NCBI GenBank assembly: GCA_043732485.1
Contig: JAYTHP010000179.1
Span: 1-10,568, forward strand
Length of the DNA stretch: 10,568 nucleotides
Origin: Oligoflexia bacterium
Lineage (GTDB): Bacteria; Bdellovibrionota; UBA1018
Reading direction: 5' to 3'
A program made the position numbers and the translations under genes. Shown piece by piece: positions 2,962 through 10,568 of this stretch (positions are counted from its first letter, which is position 1; each line of letters opens with the position of its first letter). The notes below the pieces were generated by a model. It made no database searches. It had not been told where the DNA came from and saw only the letters and a list, made by a program, of their open reading frames with translations.

Positions 2962-3843
2962 ATGCGCTTGTTATTTGGCAGGCTCTTTTCTAGTGTCAAA
3001 AGTATGGGGTCGGATCCATTCGCTCACACCTTAGCAGTCGGTGGTCAAGTGCGCCAGCTTTCAGTGGCGGCGCCGGCTTTTAATGAAGCCCTAGGGATTG
3101 AAAAAGAAGTCTCAAGCTGGCTGGATTATTTAGCAGCTTGCCCATTTCTTGAGCAATTTGAAGTGATTATTTGTGATGATGGCAGCCAGGATCAGACCGT
3201 ACCAATACTCACCCGTCTGGCGCACGCTCGTCCTGAGCTGAAAGTCGTGCGCCACCTGCAAAACCAGGGGGCCGCAGCGGCACTGGCCACGGCCATTGCA
3301 AGCACCCAGTACGAGTGGGTTTTGCTCAACGATTGCGATGGCCAGTTTGCCATTGAAGACTTGGCTAAGCTGGTAGCGGCGATCGAGGGCAACCGCTCAA
3401 GGCTACTAGCGGCTGAGGTGCGAGCTGCGAGCGGCATAAGGCTGCAAAAGAGTGATCAGCGCTTTTACCGTGCCGGGAGCTGGCTCAGTGGGGCGGTGTG
3501 TAATTTTATTTTTGGGGTGGCTTACCGCGACTTTAATTGTGCTTTCAAGCTGATTGAGGGCCGCTTGCTGCGCTCGTTGTGTTTGGAGACCAGAGGCATG
3601 AATTACTCCACTGAGGTGACCGCCAAGCTATTGGAGCGAGGCGTGGTGCAAGCCGAGGTGGTCTTGACCTCGCGCCTGATGATGACACCCGTTACATCAG
3701 GGCCAGGCCGCAGCCCGCGGCCGCATCTCAAGCGGGCCTGGGGCAGGGCACTTTTTGTCTTTTACTTGCTGGTGCGCCGCCTTCTGCTCAAGCACGAGGT
3801 GATTAGGCCTTGTGGGACGGGCAGGGCACTTGTTGAGGAATAG
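2962..3843 (+). CDS. Glycosyltransferase family 2, Dpm1/GtrB-like (polyprenol-phosphate glycosyltransferase type); start may be ATG 3004
   Basis: Motifs PAFNE, CDDGSQD, NQG, NDCDGQF (DxD), DFNCAFKL, and a C-terminal amphipathic/hydrophobic helix. Confidence 0.9.
   Translation: MRLLFGRLFSSVKSMGSDPFAHTLAVGGQVRQLSVAAPAFNEALGIEKEVSSWLDYLAACPFLEQFEVIICDDGSQDQTVPILTRLAHARPELKVVRHLQNQGAAAALATAIASTQYEWVLLNDCDGQFAIEDLAKLVAAIEGNRSRLLAAEVRAASGIRLQKSDQRFYRAGSWLSGAVCNFIFGVAYRDFNCAFKLIEGRLLRSLCLETRGMNYSTEVTAKLLERGVVQAEVVLTSRLMMTPVTSGPGRSPRPHLKRAWGRALFVFYLLVRRLLLKHEVIRPCGTGRALVEE
2968..2996 (+). promoter_or_regulatory. Candidate sigma70 promoter for the sugar cluster
   Basis: TTGTTA (2968-2973), a 17-nt spacer, then TAGTGT (2991-2996). 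The predicted +1 falls at about 3003-3004, on the in-frame ATG at 3004. Confidence 0.3.
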
Positions 3844-5836
3844 AGCCGCTGAGGCGGCGTTGTCGGCAGGCGCTGCGTCACTCAAGGTGACGCTGTTTTG
3901 CGGTGGGCGGGGCAGCGCTGCGGTGATCCGGGAATTTCTTAGGCGCGATTACATCGATTTGACGCTCCTGGTAAATGCCTATGATGATGGGTTGTCCACA
4001 GGCTTGCTGCGCGATTTGATCCCAGGGCTGCTCGGGCCTTCAGATTTTCGTAAGAATTTAGCCCATTTAATTGAGTTTCATTCCTTGCATCAATACGCCA
4101 TTGCCGCTCTCTTAGAGCTGCGGCTACCGGATTCCACGACTGTTGCTGAGGAGTTAGGTCAGCTTGAGGCGTTTGCGCGTGGCAGGCTAGAGTTACGAAA
4201 AATGCCAGGCTACTTGCGGGAGCTTTTTCAGGCGATTGATCCCCTGATGGGCGAGCATCTCAAGCATTACCTGGTCTCTTTTTTTGATTTCTATCACCAA
4301 AGCGGGCGCAACTTTGATTTTCGTGATTGCTCGTTGGGTAATCTCATTTTTGCGGGAGCTTTTTTACAGCATGGACAGACCTTCAATCAAGCGGTGGTGG
4401 AGTTATCGCGCTTGTTGCAAACCCGGGCGCATTTGATTGATGTGACGGAAGGGGGGAATCGGGTTTTAGCGGCCTTAAAAGCAAACGGTGAGGTGCTGGA
4501 GTGTGAAGCGAAAATTGTCGCTCCGCAAAGCCCGTCACCGATCATCGGCTTGTATTTATTAGAAAAAAAACTCACAGCTTCAGAGCTTGCAGTCTTAGCG
4601 GGGCTTGAGCTTGCACAAAAGAAAGCCTCCTTGGAGGCGCTGGATCGCCCGGATCGGCTGTCGGCCAGGGCGCGGGCGGCGATTTTGGCCTCCGATTTGG
4701 TGGTGTATGGAGCCGGCACGCAGCATTCTTCGCTTTTCCCTAGTTACCGGACGATCGGGCTACGGGAGGCGCTGGAGCAAAGTCCGGCGAGACTGAAAGC
4801 CTTTATGGCGAATCTGCAAGAGGATCACGACATTCAGGGGCTGGGGGTGCAAGCAGTCGTCGAGCGCGCCTTAGGTTATCTCGGTGACACGACGCAGGAG
4901 CAGCAGTTGATCACGCATGTCTTCACGTCACCCGGCGGTTTGCCTGCCGATCAAGCGGGCTGGCTGTCTGGTCACGGGGCGCCTGATACTTTCCCTTCTC
5001 CTTTTTCTTCTTGGATCTGGCGGCCTGCTCAGATTGCCAACCCCACGCATCCTGAGTTTCACTCAGGCGAGCGGGTGGTGAGTCTCCTGCTTGATGAGTG
5101 GAATGACTTGCAAGGGGGCGAACGCAAGTCGGGGCGTGAGCTCACGATTTATATTGATTTGCACCAACGGTCGATGGCGCTGCGGCAATTGATTGATGAG
5201 TTCCTAGAAATTCCCTGGCAAACCCACTTCTCGCGCACCCGTCTGATTGTCAATCACGCCAAGGTCGCACCGCAAGTCTGGCCCAACGGCTTGAGTCTTG
5301 AGAGTGCCCAAGAAGAGCGGCTTTTTTCTGATGTGGGGGTCTTTCGCAGGTGGCTTGAGCAGGGCGACAGTCCCTATTTAGTCACGCTCACGGGCGATGG
5401 CGCCTACCATTTGCGGGACATCTTAAAAAGTATCACGTTCATGCGCCAGGGGTATTTCGGGGCGGTGTTTGGCTCGCGTAACCAGAGTCGTAGGCAACGC
5501 AGGCAATCGCTCCAGGCAGCTTACGGCGAGGCGGGCTATTTGCATGTGCTGGGGGCCTTCGCAGGCGTGCTCTCGACGCTTGCCTTTTGGTTGCGCTTTG
5601 ATTTAATTTTCTCTGACCCGTTTACGGGCTTTCGGGTGTACAGTCGAGCGCACTTAAGCGGGCTGAAGCTCGCGCCAGCGAGGAGGGAGTCCTCCTCGCT
5701 GCTCACGCGCGCCTTGCTCGCCCACGGCGTGACAATCATCGAATTGCCGATCAATTACACCACTTTTCAGGGGTTTACCCAGCTGGGTTGGCGCATCAAG
5801 CGAGGGATCATCAATATGATCACCATTTTTGGTTAG
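3812..5836 (+). CDS. Fusion protein: CofD/YvcK (UPF0052) family domain plus degenerate C-terminal GT2-like domain
   Basis: The N-domain has FCGGRG, NAYDDGLSTG, GPSDFRKN, SLGNL, GAGTQHSSLFPS and a terminal FHSG, matching the CofD/YvcK signatures GGxG, DDGxSxG, GNL and GPGS..TS. The C-domain (from ~5138) has TGDGAY, VFGSR, SDPFTGFRVY and ELPINY, typical of Dpm1-like GT2. The exact start (GTG 3812, TTG 3830/3833 or GTG 3887) is uncertain. Confidence 0.85.
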   Translation: MGRAGHLLRNRAAEAALSAGAASLKVTLFCGGRGSAAVIREFLRRDYIDLTLLVNAYDDGLSTGLLRDLIPGLLGPSDFRKNLAHLIEFHSLHQYAIAALLELRLPDSTTVAEELGQLEAFARGRLELRKMPGYLRELFQAIDPLMGEHLKHYLVSFFDFYHQSGRNFDFRDCSLGNLIFAGAFLQHGQTFNQAVVELSRLLQTRAHLIDVTEGGNRVLAALKANGEVLECEAKIVAPQSPSPIIGLYLLEKKLTASELAVLAGLELAQKKASLEALDRPDRLSARARAAILASDLVVYGAGTQHSSLFPSYRTIGLREALEQSPARLKAFMANLQEDHDIQGLGVQAVVERALGYLGDTTQEQQLITHVFTSPGGLPADQAGWLSGHGAPDTFPSPFSSWIWRPAQIANPTHPEFHSGERVVSLLLDEWNDLQGGERKSGRELTIYIDLHQRSMALRQLIDEFLEIPWQTHFSRTRLIVNHAKVAPQVWPNGLSLESAQEERLFSDVGVFRRWLEQGDSPYLVTLTGDGAYHLRDILKSITFMRQGYFGAVFGSRNQSRRQRRQSLQAAYGEAGYLHVLGAFAGVLSTLAFWLRFDLIFSDPFTGFRVYSRAHLSGLKLAPARRESSSLLTRALLAHGVTIIELPINYTTFQGFTQLGWRIKRGIINMITIFG

Positions 5837-5910
5837 CAGTGTGGCAGCTGAAGCAGCAAGAGGAGTAGCAGGAGTCTCCAAGAGGAGCAACACGAGGGGG
5901 GGTAAGTCCA

Positions 5911-6801
5911 ATGTCCCTGAGCGCTAAGCCAAATTCAGAGCCGCAGCCAGGTATTTGTGTGGTGATTCCGGCAGCGGGTCATGGCAAGCGGCTAGGCAGC
6001 CGGCTGCCTAAGGTGTTTACGGTGATTGCGGCGGTAGATAGCCACCGCGAGGTCGTGGTTTTGGATCTCTTACTTGCGCAGTTGCCAGTAGACGAGGCCA
6101 TTGCCCAGGTGATTTTGATTCTCTCACCGGCAGGTCAGGCTCATTTTGCCACGTACCAGGCGCCAGCCTATTGGCAAAAAAAAATCGAAGTCGTCGTGCA
6201 AGTGGAGCAAACAGGCACCGGCGACGCGGTGTTTTGTGCGGCAGCAAGCTGGGAGAGGTGGACGCACCTGCTTGTGATCTGGGGTGATCAAGTGCAGGTG
6301 AAGCGCGAGACGCTCAGGCGTGTGGTGCAAGCCTTGCAGGTCAAAGAAGCCCCGCCTCGACGGTGGGTGCTGCCGTTAGTCTGGGTAAGCAAGCCTTATG
6401 TGCAGTATTGCCTGGCCAATGCAGGTCCTGGCGGTGACTTACCCGCGGCACCGCAGCGCCTAGTGGCAGTGCGCTTATCGCGTGAGGGCGACAGGGTTGA
6501 TCCCTGCGGCTGGTCGGATGTTGGGGTGTTTGGTTTTAAAACGTCGCAGTTAGCCGAGAGTTGGCGCAGGTACGTCGTGAGTCCGCGGCTTGGGGGGGCG
6601 ACCGGGGAAGTGAACTTTTTGTGCTGGCTTGAGTACCTGAGTCAGCTGGCTGAGTCGCCGGTGCAGTGTCTTGAGGTGCAAGATCCGGTGGAGTGTCGGG
6701 GGCTAAATAGCCCGGAGGATTTGCGGTGGTTTCAGGAGTACTGGCAGTTAGCAAGAAAAAATCAGGAGGAGGAGGAGGATGCCTCGTTGCAAATTCCTTG
6801 A
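5911..6801 (+). CDS. Nucleotidyltransferase (NTP_transferase fold, GlmU N-terminal-like, no acetyltransferase domain)
   Basis: Motifs IPAAGHGKRLGSRLPK (GxGxR..PK), QVEQTGTGDAV (GTG.AV), WGDQ, GEVNFL and GLNSPEDL. The ORF ends without hexapeptide repeats. A purine-rich RBS lies upstream. Confidence 0.88.
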   Translation: MSLSAKPNSEPQPGICVVIPAAGHGKRLGSRLPKVFTVIAAVDSHREVVVLDLLLAQLPVDEAIAQVILILSPAGQAHFATYQAPAYWQKKIEVVVQVEQTGTGDAVFCAAASWERWTHLLVIWGDQVQVKRETLRRVVQALQVKEAPPRRWVLPLVWVSKPYVQYCLANAGPGGDLPAAPQRLVAVRLSREGDRVDPCGWSDVGVFGFKTSQLAESWRRYVVSPRLGGATGEVNFLCWLEYLSQLAESPVQCLEVQDPVECRGLNSPEDLRWFQEYWQLARKNQEEEEDASLQIP

Positions 6802-6928
6802 AGGTCTTGCGTGAAGCTCGCGCTAGAAAAATCCTTTGAGAGCAAGTCTTCAGGAAAGCACGACGGTCCTTGCAAAGTCCCCTCCTCAGCCCTGAGGCGT
6901 AACCGTTAGAGAAAGGAAATCTTGCCCT

Positions 6929-7876
6929 ATGAAGCAAGTCGAAGCTGGATCTAAGAGTCACGTGGCCAGTCAGCAGTTGGGTCCGTTGAAGCGGGTGCTT
7001 GTCACAGGCGGCGCCGGGTTTATTGGCAGCCATCTTGTGGCCTCCTTACTCGAGCAGGGCTATGACACTGTACGGGTCTTGGATAACTTCTCGCAAGGCA
7101 AGCGCGCATGGCTCCCGCCCGCAGTCGAAGTGCTTGAGGGTGATATCGTATGCCCTGAGGATTGTGCGCGGGCGTGCAGGGAGGTCGACGGGGTCGTGCA
7201 CTTGGCTGCCATGAGCAAATCGGGGCCATCTTTTGATTTGTTTGAGTTTTGTATGACCCAAAACGCGGTGGGCACGCAAAATATCCTGGCAGCAGCGGTT
7301 GCAGCGGGGGTAAAGAAGCTGGTTTATGCCGCCTCCTCGACCTGTTACGGCAATGCGCCGGCCCCACAACAGGAAACCTCGCCGCTTGAGTTTTTGAACC
7401 CTTACGCGCTGTCCAAGTACGTTGGTGAGCAATCAGCCTTACTCTTTAACCGTATTTATCAGTTGCCGGTCATTTCACTCAGGCTTTTTAATGTCTATGG
7501 ACCAAGACAGCCTGATCAAGGGGCTTATGCCTTAGTCTTAGGGCGTTTTCTCGAGCGGCACAAAAGGGGGCTTGCTTTGCAGATCCACGGTTCAGGTCGC
7601 CAGCAACGCGATTTCATTCATGTGCGGGATGTGGCAAACGCCATGATCCTGGCGCTCGAGAGCCTTGAGCGGGGGCACGTCTTGAATGTCGGCAGTGGCA
7701 GTAACGTCTCGGTGCAAGAGATTGCGGATCTAATTGCGCCTCAGCACCAGGTACGCGAGCCGCGCAGGCTGGGTGACGCCGAAGTCACGCTGGCTGAGAT
7801 CAGCGAGATTCAGAGGGTTTTGGGCTGGGAACCTAGTGTTTCTTTCTCCGAGGGCTTGAAAGAGTTGATGGGGTGA
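6929..7876 (+). CDS. NAD-dependent nucleotide-sugar epimerase/dehydratase (extended SDR, GalE/WbpP-like)
   Basis: Motifs VLVTGGAGFIG (Rossmann), HLAA, ASSTCYG, YALSK (YxxxK), RLFNVYGPRQ and RDFIHVRDVA. AAGGA lies upstream of the ATG. Confidence 0.95.
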   Translation: MKQVEAGSKSHVASQQLGPLKRVLVTGGAGFIGSHLVASLLEQGYDTVRVLDNFSQGKRAWLPPAVEVLEGDIVCPEDCARACREVDGVVHLAAMSKSGPSFDLFEFCMTQNAVGTQNILAAAVAAGVKKLVYAASSTCYGNAPAPQQETSPLEFLNPYALSKYVGEQSALLFNRIYQLPVISLRLFNVYGPRQPDQGAYALVLGRFLERHKRGLALQIHGSGRQQRDFIHVRDVANAMILALESLERGHVLNVGSGSNVSVQEIADLIAPQHQVREPRRLGDAEVTLAEISEIQRVLGWEPSVSFSEGLKELMG

Positions 7877-7944: not shown

Positions 7945-8870
7945 TTAAACGTCAAACTCTCCCTCGGCAAGCCTGAGGAGAAAGGTTTCGATGAAATAAT
8001 ACTCGATGCCGCTTTCCCAGCGATGAATCAAGCGATCAAATGAAACCATGATTAAGCGCTTGACTCTGTTTTCCTCCTGGCGGGTCTTGAGCCCATGAAA
8101 GTGGCAATCGGTCAAGCGGCTGGCGCTGGTCACTTTGCTGGCGATCTGATCGCCTAAGCAAAAATCAACTTCATGGTGGGCTTTCAATCTCTAAAAAGTC
8201 AGTGGCGTGTGGATGCGTCGATAGCTAAGGTGGGCGCGCAGTTCATGCAAAACCCAGGTTTCAAGAGCTCGAGCGAATACTGCCGACTCTCGCTCAAGAG
8301 CGATATTTTCGGCCAAGCAAAGTCCGCTGAACGCCTGAGTCAACGAGGTAGTACTTGACCGTACGAATGGCCCTTCGCTTTTTTGACTCCCGCCAAGGCT
8401 CAAGCGCGTAGCCGATCAGGGTATCCCTTACAATAGCAAGGTAGGCTCGCACGGTGGTCTCGCTCACGCCTGTGTCGCTTGCAACGGCCGCGTAATTGAG
8501 CAGCTCTCCTGACTGCCGGGCTGCGACTTTCAGGAAGCGGATACATTGCCCCAAGTCTCGCACGGCTGCTTGCTCTTGGATTTCTTCTTTATAAGTAGGT
8601 GTCGGCGTAAGCGTGAAGGGCCTGCCAGGGATCTTGGCTCAGGAGAACTGCGGGAAGTGCGCCCCACTGAAGTTTTTTCTCAAGCGCGGAGGGGTGATCA
8701 GTCAGCCTGAGAAGCGTGTTGAGGCTGAGCAGCGAGAGCACCTGGTCGTCAGGAGTCGCAGAGGTCAGAGTCTCTTGAATGAGGATAGTTTTTCCTGCCC
8801 CTTTGGGCTCAAGCAGTCAGTGAGACTGGAGTGTCAAGCGGCTGTTGAGATCGAGTCGTCGGGTGAATAC
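7945..8870 (-). pseudogene. AAA_14 ATPase + DUF4143 protein pseudogene
   Basis: Manual translation gives VFTRRLDL...SH*LLEPKGAGKT (degenerate Walker A at 8810-8787, TGA at 8819-8817) ...WGALPAV...AYADTYL. After a frameshift at 8591 it reads KEEIQEQAAVR...SGELLNYAAVASDTGVSETTVRAYLAIVRDTLIG...KYYLVDSGV. After a second frameshift at ~8310 it reads ALETWVLHEL...LTF*RLKAHHEVDF (TAG 8193-8191 at the usual Trp). The Walker B region is absent. Confidence 0.9.
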
Positions 8871-9183: not shown

Positions 9184-9288
9184 CTTTTACGGTTTGCTTT
9201 CTTCGTGCGGCCGCTGCCTACCCGCGCAATTTTCTCGCCCCTTGCTTTGGCAACAAAGGAGGCTTTTGGGTGTAGGGGGGGGAGGCTA

Positions 9289-10248
9289 TTTGGGAATACT
9301 AAAGAGAGTGCCGAAGTTCGTAGGACCACCGTTGACGGTGATCCTATAGAACGTGAAGCCGTCGGCTGAGAGCAGTAGATTGCCATGTGGTTGCGCGCCG
9401 TCTGTGCTGCCACCGGTAAAAAAGTGCAAGTAGGTGGGGCTACCGCCGCTCATGGGGATGCTAAAAGCCGTGCCGTAATTGTCAGGCCCACCCGCTGACG
9501 TCATACCGTAGAGGGTGGAATCGGCGCCAGAAATCACCGTGCCGTAAGATGTCGCGCCGTCCGTGCTGCTGCCGGTAAAGAAGTGGAGGTAGGTGGGACT
9601 GCCACCAGAGGTGGGGATGCTAAAGACGGCGCCTAGATTGGAGGGTCCCCCTTGCAAGGTAAAACCGTAGAGGGTCGAGCCATCTTTTGAGAGCGCCAGT
9701 TCCCCGACCGGAAACGCCCCCGCGCTGGAGTCTCCGCTAAAAAAGTGTAAATAGGTCAGGCTTCCACCCCGAGTGGCGACACTAAAGACCGAGCCACTGC
9801 CGGTGGGACCGCTGCTGCTGGTCACCCCGTAAAGGGTCGTGCCGTCGCTAGAAAAGGTGAGATCGCCGTAGGGTACGCGCGCCATCCCTACTGCCACCTG
9901 CAAAAAAATACAGATAACTCGGACTGCCGCCACTTACGGGGATGCTCAAAAGCGTGCTGTTATCGGTGGGGCCGCCGTTTTTGGTCATGCTAGAGAGGGT
10001 CGAGCCATCGTTTGAGACTAATAACGCTTCATTAGCCCCTGCGCCATAGTTACTGCCTGAGGGGAAAAAATGCAGATAACGCACGCTGCTGCTGCTTGCC
10101 GTACCAAGCGGCAGGCTAAATAGCGAGCCACGATTAGCAGAACCGCCTAAAAACGTCATGCCGTAGAGCATGGCGCCGTCTTCCGAGAGGCTAGGCGTAC
10201 CATAGGGGGGGGTTGAGCCGTCGCTGCTGCCACCTTGAAAAAATGCAA
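9289..10248 (-). repeat. Six ~162-bp (54-aa) coding repeats
   Basis: L[HY]FF motifs start at 10248, 10075, 9913, 9750, 9588 and 9429, giving spacings of 173, 162, 163, 162 and 159 nt. Confidence 0.9.
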
Positions 10249-10556
10249 CACAGTGTAAAGCGCTACCCCTGTCAGGGAGTGGGTGGCTGGTGAGTGACGA
10301 TCCATTGACGCTAGCACTGATCACGCAAGCCCCAGGCGTGGTGCCCGTGAAGGTGGAGGTAAAAACGCCGTTGCCCAGACTCGTGAGGGTGCCAAAGGTG
10401 CCTTTTCCCGTGCCTGAGGAAAGCGTCAACGCTTCGGTAGTGATGCCGGTGGGGTTGGCGTTGCTATAAGAGTCATAAGTCGTGAGCGTGGCGCTGACTG
10501 AATGGCCTTTCACCACGCTAGGTGAGGCCACACTGAGCGTGCTTTTGCTTGCTGCA

Positions 10557-10568
10557 CCCCCCCCCCCC
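10557..10568. repeat. Homopolymer of at least 12 C (poly-G on the coding strand)
   Basis: Twelve consecutive C end the window, inside the open frame of the surface-protein gene. Confidence 0.9.

Follow-up and report, generated by a model that had tools for sequence, protein, structure and literature searches.

The synthesis of ADP- and GDP-heptose is one of the donor routes that run through a kinase, a HAD and a nucleotidyltransferase, while GtrABV and ArnCEFT are three-component systems for extracytoplasmic glycosylation. The pentofuranose systems are described as being of this second kind (PMC11127046). For phage heptose-hydroxymethylcytosine, a HAD::kinase, a cytidylyltransferase and a T4-βGT-like enzyme are all reported to be required (cluster 'contig 53' of 10.1101/2023.12.21.572611), and the nucleoside diphosphate (NDP)-arabinose route of RB69, DLP3 and HY126 is described as an isomerase, a kinase, a HAD and a nucleotidyltransferase (PMC13326640; PMC6024577). 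Here we analyze a four-gene cassette of an Oligoflexia bacterium, at positions 2962 to 7876 of contig JAYTHP010000179.1, in which a domain of the CofD/YvcK fold fused to a GT2 domain is encoded among enzymes of nucleotide sugar metabolism. The window is the entire 10,568-base contig, from a 2.58-Mb, 89%-complete assembly. Like the kinase-HAD-nucleotidyltransferase routes, the cassette family links a glycosyltransferase gene with genes for a HAD and a sugar-1-phosphate nucleotidyltransferase (the window itself is without the HAD), and its phage form further resembles the heptose and arabinose-type routes in having the HAD fused to the first enzyme and a T4-βGT-like transferase. Unlike them, it has a CofD/YvcK fold in place of the APH-like kinase, no recurrent isomerase and a nucleotidyltransferase from a separate, GlmU-like family.

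We propose that the CofD-like domain, the HAD and the nucleotidyltransferase probably form a portable module that provides a sugar donor. Supply of a donor is the simplest common role because the CofD/nucleotidyltransferase pair, with the HAD, travels with at least three unrelated types of glycosyltransferase, which act on lipid or on DNA. For the cassette as a whole, we put at about even the chances that it makes an unusual uridine diphosphate (UDP)-sugar and loads it on polyprenyl phosphate to glycosylate the cell envelope, the CofD-like domain acting first, as a sugar kinase. The widest claim falls somewhat short of even: that a fourth CofD/YvcK branch constitutes a new class of kinase, or pyrophosphokinase, for the anomeric position of sugars, in a portable module for an unrecognised nucleotide sugar that reaches bacterial surfaces through a lipid carrier and phage DNA bases through GT-B or GT-A enzymes. 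If true, a kinase chemistry and a nucleotide-sugar donor would both be new, and the glycosylation of envelopes would be tied to the protection of phage DNA. Catalysis by YvcK/GlmR-fold proteins outside F420 synthesis is unsettled, uridylyltransferase activity being seen in vitro and questioned in cells; here the subfamily belongs to a module of three enzymes whose output is defined, and in phages the readout would be the mass added to hydroxymethylcytosine.

The scan for open reading frames (ORFs) of the window confirmed the layout given in the initial annotation, four unbroken genes on the plus strand with an overlap of 32 bp between GT2 and fusion and later gaps of 74 and 127 bp, although the overlap hinges on the choice of start codon:

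2962..3843, plus strand: stand-alone Dpm1-like GT2, 293 aa (PF00535, 80 bits)
3812..5836, plus strand: CofD::GT2 fusion, 674 aa, two domains
3812..5113, plus strand: CofD/YvcK-fold domain of the fusion, aa 21-434 (PF01933, fold match, tree)
5120..5836, plus strand: fused GT-A domain, a Dpm1/ArnC-type GT2, aa 437-674 (structure match)
5837..5910, no strand: 74-bp gap, the site of a HAD-IA phosphatase gene in most homologous cassettes, HAD-free here
5911..6801, plus strand: GlmU-N-like nucleotidyltransferase, 296 aa (GlmU is the best match)
6929..7876, plus strand: extended SDR, predicted NDP-sugar epimerase, 315 aa (PF01370, 202 bits)

The fusion is a member of the CofD/YvcK superfamily, with a PF01933 match of 68.7 bits over residues 26 to 358 (cut-off 30), and the sole PF01933 gene of its genome. 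Its AlphaFold model (predicted local distance difference test score, pLDDT, of 85.9) has two domains, the first of which, residues 21 to 434, matches YvcK 2q7x (Z 28.1), FbiA (Z 21.8) and CofD (Z 21.2). YvcK is also the nearest solved fold in Foldseek (E 4e-14), and an Atlas search with the CofD domain returned PF01933 clusters only. Judged by sequence, the domain is a separate subfamily outside F420 CofD, YvcK/GlmR and GAK; the position outside the housekeeping YvcK and true CofD clades that the initial annotation had suggested holds in both scores and tree, and extends to GAK. Identity with F420 CofD/FbiA (TIGR01819) was rejected since there was no match at E 0.01, while references reach 284 to 288 bits and form their own clade (support 100/100). 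As a housekeeping YvcK/GlmR (TIGR01826) the domain scored 63.7 bits against a cut-off of 196, and the YvcK clade (96/97) leaves the cassette proteins out. The GAK CofD-like model (TIGR04357) is the top NCBIfam model, though at 81.7 bits against a cut-off of 340, with references at 449 to 556 bits and a separate GAK clade (100/100). The bacterial cassette proteins form one clade (96/93) in the careful tree, which holds 42 of the 64 aligned rows, with 22 left out, and has YvcK references limited to Pseudomonadota plus a single cyanobacterium and a single acidobacterium; the labels of 12 scanned reference proteins were checked by family scores.

With YvcK/GlmR the domain shares the fold, the GGxG loop, D58/D59, R67, D78, R80 and N177, but it carries a longer helical insert and a Ser at the N198 site, lies in a genome without rapZ and is sporadically distributed. 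With CofC/CofD and FbiD/FbiA it shares the fold (Z 21-22), the metal ligands D45/D57 and the tight pairing with a nucleotidyltransferase, whereas its partner is GlmU-like, its neighbors are glycosyltransferases and CofC and CofE are missing from the genome. GAK CofD-like proteins have a helical insert in a similar position but lack N55, Y57, K81 and N82, and GAK partners were absent from the annotated neighbor clusters. The earlier remark that no F420 or rapZ genes lie nearby extends to the 89%-complete genome, which gave no match to CofC (PF01983), CofE (PF01996) or RapZ (PF03668), whiA not being among the genes searched; the neighbors of the cassette are glycan genes.

D58 and D78 are kept in all 64 aligned rows and correspond in a sequence alignment to D45 and D57, the reported metal ligands of FbiA (PMC8498797), while D58/D59 correspond to residues D38/D39 of GlmR (PMC13046274). 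The catalytic residues given for Listeria monocytogenes GlmR are D40, D41 and N198 (PMC10128056); the two Asp are kept as D58 and D59, and the equivalent of N198 is S311 here and T in phages, with Asn itself in just 3 of 9 YvcK references. The subfamily signature is N-x-YD, LGxSDxRKN, GT and DxD. On these residues and the fold, we predict the domain to be the phosphotransferase of the donor route. The whole fusion could instead have no catalytic role and control the nucleotidyltransferase and the GT2 by sensing UDP-sugars or serving as a scaffold, much as GlmR acts on GlmS. GlmR, which binds UDP-N-acetylglucosamine (UDP-GlcNAc) and is described as a GlmS regulator (PMC13046274), provides the precedent, and the attached GT2 already looks inactive. 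Such a role is improbable given that all of the 32 bacterial and 16 phage rows keep D58, D78, R67, R80, K81, E232, N334 and D338 and that lytic phages keep the domain joined to a HAD that retains a DxD-type motif.

The linkage of the cassette genes was assessed in relatives of the fusion from 463 GTDB stretches, with counts from the best 80, of which 56 are full-flank loci, extending 2.5 kb or more to either side. Among 7999 scored candidates there were 934 fusion matches, the best 120 at 40 to 46% identity (self aside), with 297 representatives at E ≤ 1e-30, and the best 80 loci span 13 named phyla. The nucleotidyltransferase is found in all 56 full-flank loci, the GT2 in 53, the epimerase in 49 and the HAD in 40, the last between fusion and nucleotidyltransferase; the 80 loci overall gave 73, 72, 59 and 51 for GT2, nucleotidyltransferase, epimerase and HAD, respectively, one of the HADs at a generic score. 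The four genes thus co-occur across homologues (56/56, 53/56 and 49/56 for nucleotidyltransferase, GT2 and epimerase), and this high linkage supports the conserved, undescribed pathway suggested by the initial annotation. Full-text literature searches, judged by titles and abstract openings, returned no description of the cassette, and CofD is unmentioned in the main text of PMC7824862, PMC13326640 and 10.1101/2023.12.21.572611, whose supplementary gene tables could list the module. The design of donor route, lipid carrier and GT-C transferase is already known, and the enzyme chemistry is possibly new.

The pair also persists in a distant branch, where 80 metagenome loci hold 64 nucleotidyltransferases, 54 second GT2s, 28 stand-alone HADs, 27 S-adenosylmethionine (SAM) methyltransferases and 14 B12 radical SAM enzymes. 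Fusions in 40 distant proteins include HAD::NTase::CofD::GT2 (one), NTase::CofD::GT2 (five), NTase::CofD (one) and CofD::HAD (three), NTase being the nucleotidyltransferase. The record of the four-domain protein, P0184, whose DAD motif is intact, comes from a Nanoarchaeota assembly. A B12-binding radical SAM gene lies at L179:5524-7011 and in 13 further metagenome loci, and the methyltransferases (27/80) are of class I; the sugar of this branch may be methylated. The spread is patchy: PF01933 of any sort occurs in 5 of 151 genomes of the phylum, and the fusion in 1 of 40 close relatives, alongside GT2, HAD and nucleotidyltransferase, with the epimerase absent from the regions fetched. A stand-alone CofD-like form, sought in 301 genomes of the Acidobacteriota phylum, gave six matches, all within long frames, and a plasmid search with an actinobacterial-type CofD::HAD protein gave none. 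Other than phage nucleotide kinases and protein kinases in three loci, no recurrent kinase family appeared in the annotated neighbor clusters. In 29 loci (e.g., L016:6976-9249), a TPR-GT41 gene of the O-GlcNAc transferase family lies directly upstream of the cassette and could be another user of the donor; we did not take it for a fourth type of transferase since 27 of the 29 are Alphaproteobacteria, probably reflecting one event.

Copies of the module occur in phages as well. Viral scans gave 5 and then 29 CofD-like loci, and in GenBank two phages carry the module, one of them the cultured Ralstonia phage RsoM2USA, a third match being weak and partial at 21.8%. In the proteins aligned and scanned, the phage domain is fused to a HAD-IIB-like domain. 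Among 27 distinct phage CofD-like proteins, 18 are encoded near a gene of the T4 β-glucosyltransferase (BGT) family, 5 near TAGT and 4 near an unassigned gene, which was not counted as a glycosyltransferase as it has no similarity to TAGT or Pfam. The nucleotidyltransferase is present in 24 of the 27 loci, RsoM2USA carries it across the record end, and thymidylate-synthase-like and nucleotide kinase genes are frequent neighbors. The published RsoM2USA table lists ORF2 as a β-glucosyltransferase and ORF486 as GlmU-like (PMC8504454).

A reverse search starting from the BGT subclade found a CofD-like gene within 8 kb in 39 of 39 loci and the nucleotidyltransferase in 35; 19 of the 39 are contigs not used before, about 13 of them distinct. 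BGT homologues occur in 122 GenBank phage records, and among the 40 listed, two stand at 45% identity, the same two phages with full-length CofD::HAD, while the other 38 (T4 included) are T4-type at 31% or less. A phage-only CofD hidden Markov model (HMM) gave 120 to 194 bits for the bacterial cassette domains, compared to 42 to 87 for YvcK, 42 to 55 for GAK and 25 to 32 for CofD; with reciprocal HMMs, phage and bacterial domains score 120 to 194 bits to each other and YvcK, GAK and CofD at most 94. With a phage-only nucleotidyltransferase HMM, the window gene ranked first of 8516 genome ORFs (59 bits versus 26 for a GlmU-like ORF). Y57, L74, G75, S77, K81, N82, T303 and D340 are family-specific residues common to phage and bacterial domains. 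At L097:3653-6987, and in L091, L113 and L115, the phage CofD::HAD follows a Vut_1 transporter, a gene with a DSGAFS motif, a short SDR and a 298-aa gene that is unassigned. We take the DSGAFS motif to be TGT-like, and in these loci the sugar is possibly added to a deazaguanine base.

From the genes, folds, conserved residues, linkage, fusions and phage copies, we infer every chemical step in the following order. The CofD-like domain, through its two conserved Asp residues and a metal, would take phosphate (or pyrophosphate) from a nucleotide and attach it to a central sugar phosphate at the anomeric hydroxyl. A HAD, which in this genome would have to be encoded elsewhere, would trim the product to the sugar 1-phosphate, and the GlmU-like enzyme would convert this to a UDP-sugar that the SDR could epimerise. 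The stand-alone GT2 would then load the lipid carrier, to be followed by a GT-C enzyme from outside the window. The CofD-like domain is set before the nucleotidyltransferase because it occupies the kinase position of the published kinase-HAD-nucleotidyltransferase routes. Its assignment to that slot, made by analogy, seems to us an evenly balanced call, plausible in that the fold performs metal-dependent phosphoryl transfer from nucleotides.

A donor module may also employ the domain as something other than a kinase: as a sugar-phosphate isomerase or epimerase before a HAD mutase, as a second, GlmR-like nucleotidyltransferase or pyrophosphorylase, or as an NDP-sugar modifier. GlmR was reported to convert GlcNAc-1-phosphate and uridine triphosphate (UTP) to UDP-GlcNAc in vitro (PMC10128056), and its D38/D39 equal D58/D59. 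The HADs, both the cassette HAD-IA and the phage HAD-IIB-like forms, rank in mutase-containing subfamilies, with the β-PGM family as top NCBIfam match, and the whole linkage evidence fits just as well. On the other side, the third GlmR catalytic residue, N198, is replaced by S311 in bacteria and by T in phages, a second nucleotidyltransferase next to a dedicated one seems redundant and GlmR activity in cells has been questioned (10.64898/2026.06.23.733835). Moreover, a mutase that was the sole source of sugar 1-phosphate should not be absent from 16 of 56 loci. We consider such a step unlikely.

The initial annotation had placed the CofD-like domain after the nucleotidyltransferase, following CofC/CofD logic, with a phosphodiester-linked unit as the product. 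The nucleotidyltransferase would make NDP-X and the CofD-like domain would move X-phosphate to the hydroxyl of a lipid- or DNA-borne sugar, releasing nucleoside monophosphate (NMP), with the inactive GT2 presenting the lipid-linked acceptor and the HAD trimming a phosphate or acting as a mutase. In its favor, the fold is proven to perform this chemistry and the domain retains both metal ligands; the CofD-like domain and the nucleotidyltransferase are linked without exception in full bacterial loci and are frequently fused, and the fused GT2 holds its C-terminal motifs while its DxD is lost. However, the nucleotidyltransferase is GlmU-like with no CofC match, and one subfamily would have to take lipid-linked and DNA-linked sugars alike. 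In addition, the linked BGT subclade always has a CofD-like gene (39/39), unlike T4-type BGTs, which suggests that these transferases depend on the module for their donor. As the HAD and the phage copies favor donor making, we find this order doubtful and not the likeliest. Because a pyrophosphate transfer from a nucleoside triphosphate would also free NMP, NMP release alone cannot tell the readings apart; substrate order can.

Several points weigh against the kinase-first donor route that we prefer. The CofD/YvcK fold is known for two reactions, a transfer that releases NMP in CofD and the transfer of a uridylyl group in GlmR, and a kinase of this fold is unreported in the literature covered. 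Gene linkage cannot prove the order of reactions, and co-inheritance also fits enzymes that act downstream of the glycosyltransferase; given mutase-type HADs, the HAD and the nucleotidyltransferase alone could make the donor. The HAD itself is missing from 16 of the 56 full-flank loci, a dispensability that fits a trimming phosphatase replaceable by host enzymes, and HAD, GT-C and flippase genes are all absent from the window. An ORF with at least six predicted membrane helices occurs in just 36 of 80 genome loci, and four related loci are without the cassette GT2, their genomes yielding GT2 matches of 134 to 142 bits only. The nucleotidyltransferase is absent from 4 of the 39 BGT loci and could not be located in three of these incomplete records. 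Finally, the sister grouping of phage and bacterial domains, with support of 87/78 in the careful tree and 93 in one quick tree, is unresolved in another.

The nucleotidyltransferase falls marginally below the PF12804 cut-off (26.7 bits versus 27), and its best NCBIfam model is GlmU (E 2.8e-11). K34, Q97 and D126 line up with K25, Q76 and D105 of Haemophilus influenzae GlmU, given as UTP ligands (PMC10128056). Because these three ligands are kept, the sequence suggests a UDP-sugar as the product. The motifs WGD, PYV, GxxD-xxx-F and ExNxL stand in place of GlmU residues, and WGD, PYV, GxxD-xxx-F, ExxxL and N266 are common to the window and phage enzymes of this cassette-specific, GlmU-N-like family. 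We take the region of the replaced residues to be the GlcNAc pocket, and the sugar is therefore probably not GlcNAc. No HAD remnant was found in the window, the 74-bp gap included, while two generic HAD-IA genes (about 98 bits) lie elsewhere in the genome. The epimerase conserves GxxGxxG, SST and YxxxK in 60 aligned copies and ranks equally with C4-epimerases and a heptose epimerase. It is near 6 of the 80 distant-branch loci and none of the phage loci, and is an accessory confined to this branch of the family.

The stand-alone GT2 is likely an active polyprenyl-phosphate glycosyltransferase, with D124-C-D126, D73 and D190 invariant in 38 homologues and the DxD intact in 70 of 73 locus copies; its NCBIfam matches to ArnC, AglJ and PpgS are weak only. 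The fused domain gave no Pfam match and is visible in the AlphaFold model, where residues 437 to 674 match DPM synthase 5mlz (Z 15.0) and ArnC (Z 14.2). The earlier assignment of this domain to GT2 thus stands for the fold, and not for the DxD, whose first Asp is lost in all 76 of the 80 loci with the motif. The window protein reads TGD at this site, and the 76 loci have xGD, the motif not being located in the other four; in distant-branch fusions, the first Asp is gone in 61 of 63. Because of this loss the fused domain is likely inactive. It retains the C-terminal motifs GSR, D602, GFR and E644, and it may merely anchor the enzyme at the membrane. Modelling of the fused domain and the stand-alone GT2 as a complex gave a score of 0.00 in two runs, controls not having been folded. 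Loci L002, L003, L004 and L024 have no stand-alone GT2, a second SDR upstream and luciferase-like monooxygenase genes around.

In its lipid-carrier synthase, and in the flippases and GT-C transferases near many homologues, the cassette family resembles the three-component glycosylation systems, as expected from the earlier suggestion that the Dpm1-like GT2 serves a lipid carrier. It differs in that it brings its own donor route, in that a further GT2, likely inactive, is joined to the CofD-like domain and in that flippase and GT-C are missing from the window. The loci hold 110 neighbors with at least six predicted membrane helices, and of the 76 scanned, 17 are above the cut-off for PMT_2, GT87, YfhO or DUF2298, 5 are LPG_synthase_TM and 37 are without family. 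YfhO and DUF2298 are presumably GT-C folds. One family-less neighbor is similar to YfhO and AftD clusters in the Atlas, and two PMT_2 genes are present outside the window in the same genome.

The choice of start codon for the fusion may have created the 32-bp overlap of the GT2 and fusion genes, which disappears if translation begins at the in-frame TTG of position 3860, preceded by GAGG; this start suits the homologues better. Residues 1 to 20 of the fusion have a pLDDT below 50, and the leader before the F-x-GG motif is 28 aa here compared to a median of 14 aa in 116 homologues. The true start of the stand-alone GT2 may be GTG 3049 instead. A promoter and terminator scan was at chance level (1 versus 2.0 expected; 11 versus 8.0 expected).

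The remaining genes of the window lie on the minus strand. At 502-1287 is a secreted-looking protein of 261 aa with a Pro/Thr linker and a C-terminal Phe, for which Pfam and NCBIfam were both blank, followed at 1254-2822 by a probable lipoprotein of 522 aa, directed away from the cassette, with a weak match to the CehA/McbA metallohydrolases (E 3e-5). A broken DUF4143 (PF13635) gene occupies 7945-8563, with the match at 8294-8563, and two short ORFs in other frames downstream of the match may be its continuation. At 9286-10568 lies a choice-of-anchor GloVer repeat protein (TIGR03803, 132 bits) with an invasin/Big domain, whose gene is broken across two frames near 9850-9930 and continues past the contig end, and paralogues of this protein are present on contigs C12 and C175.

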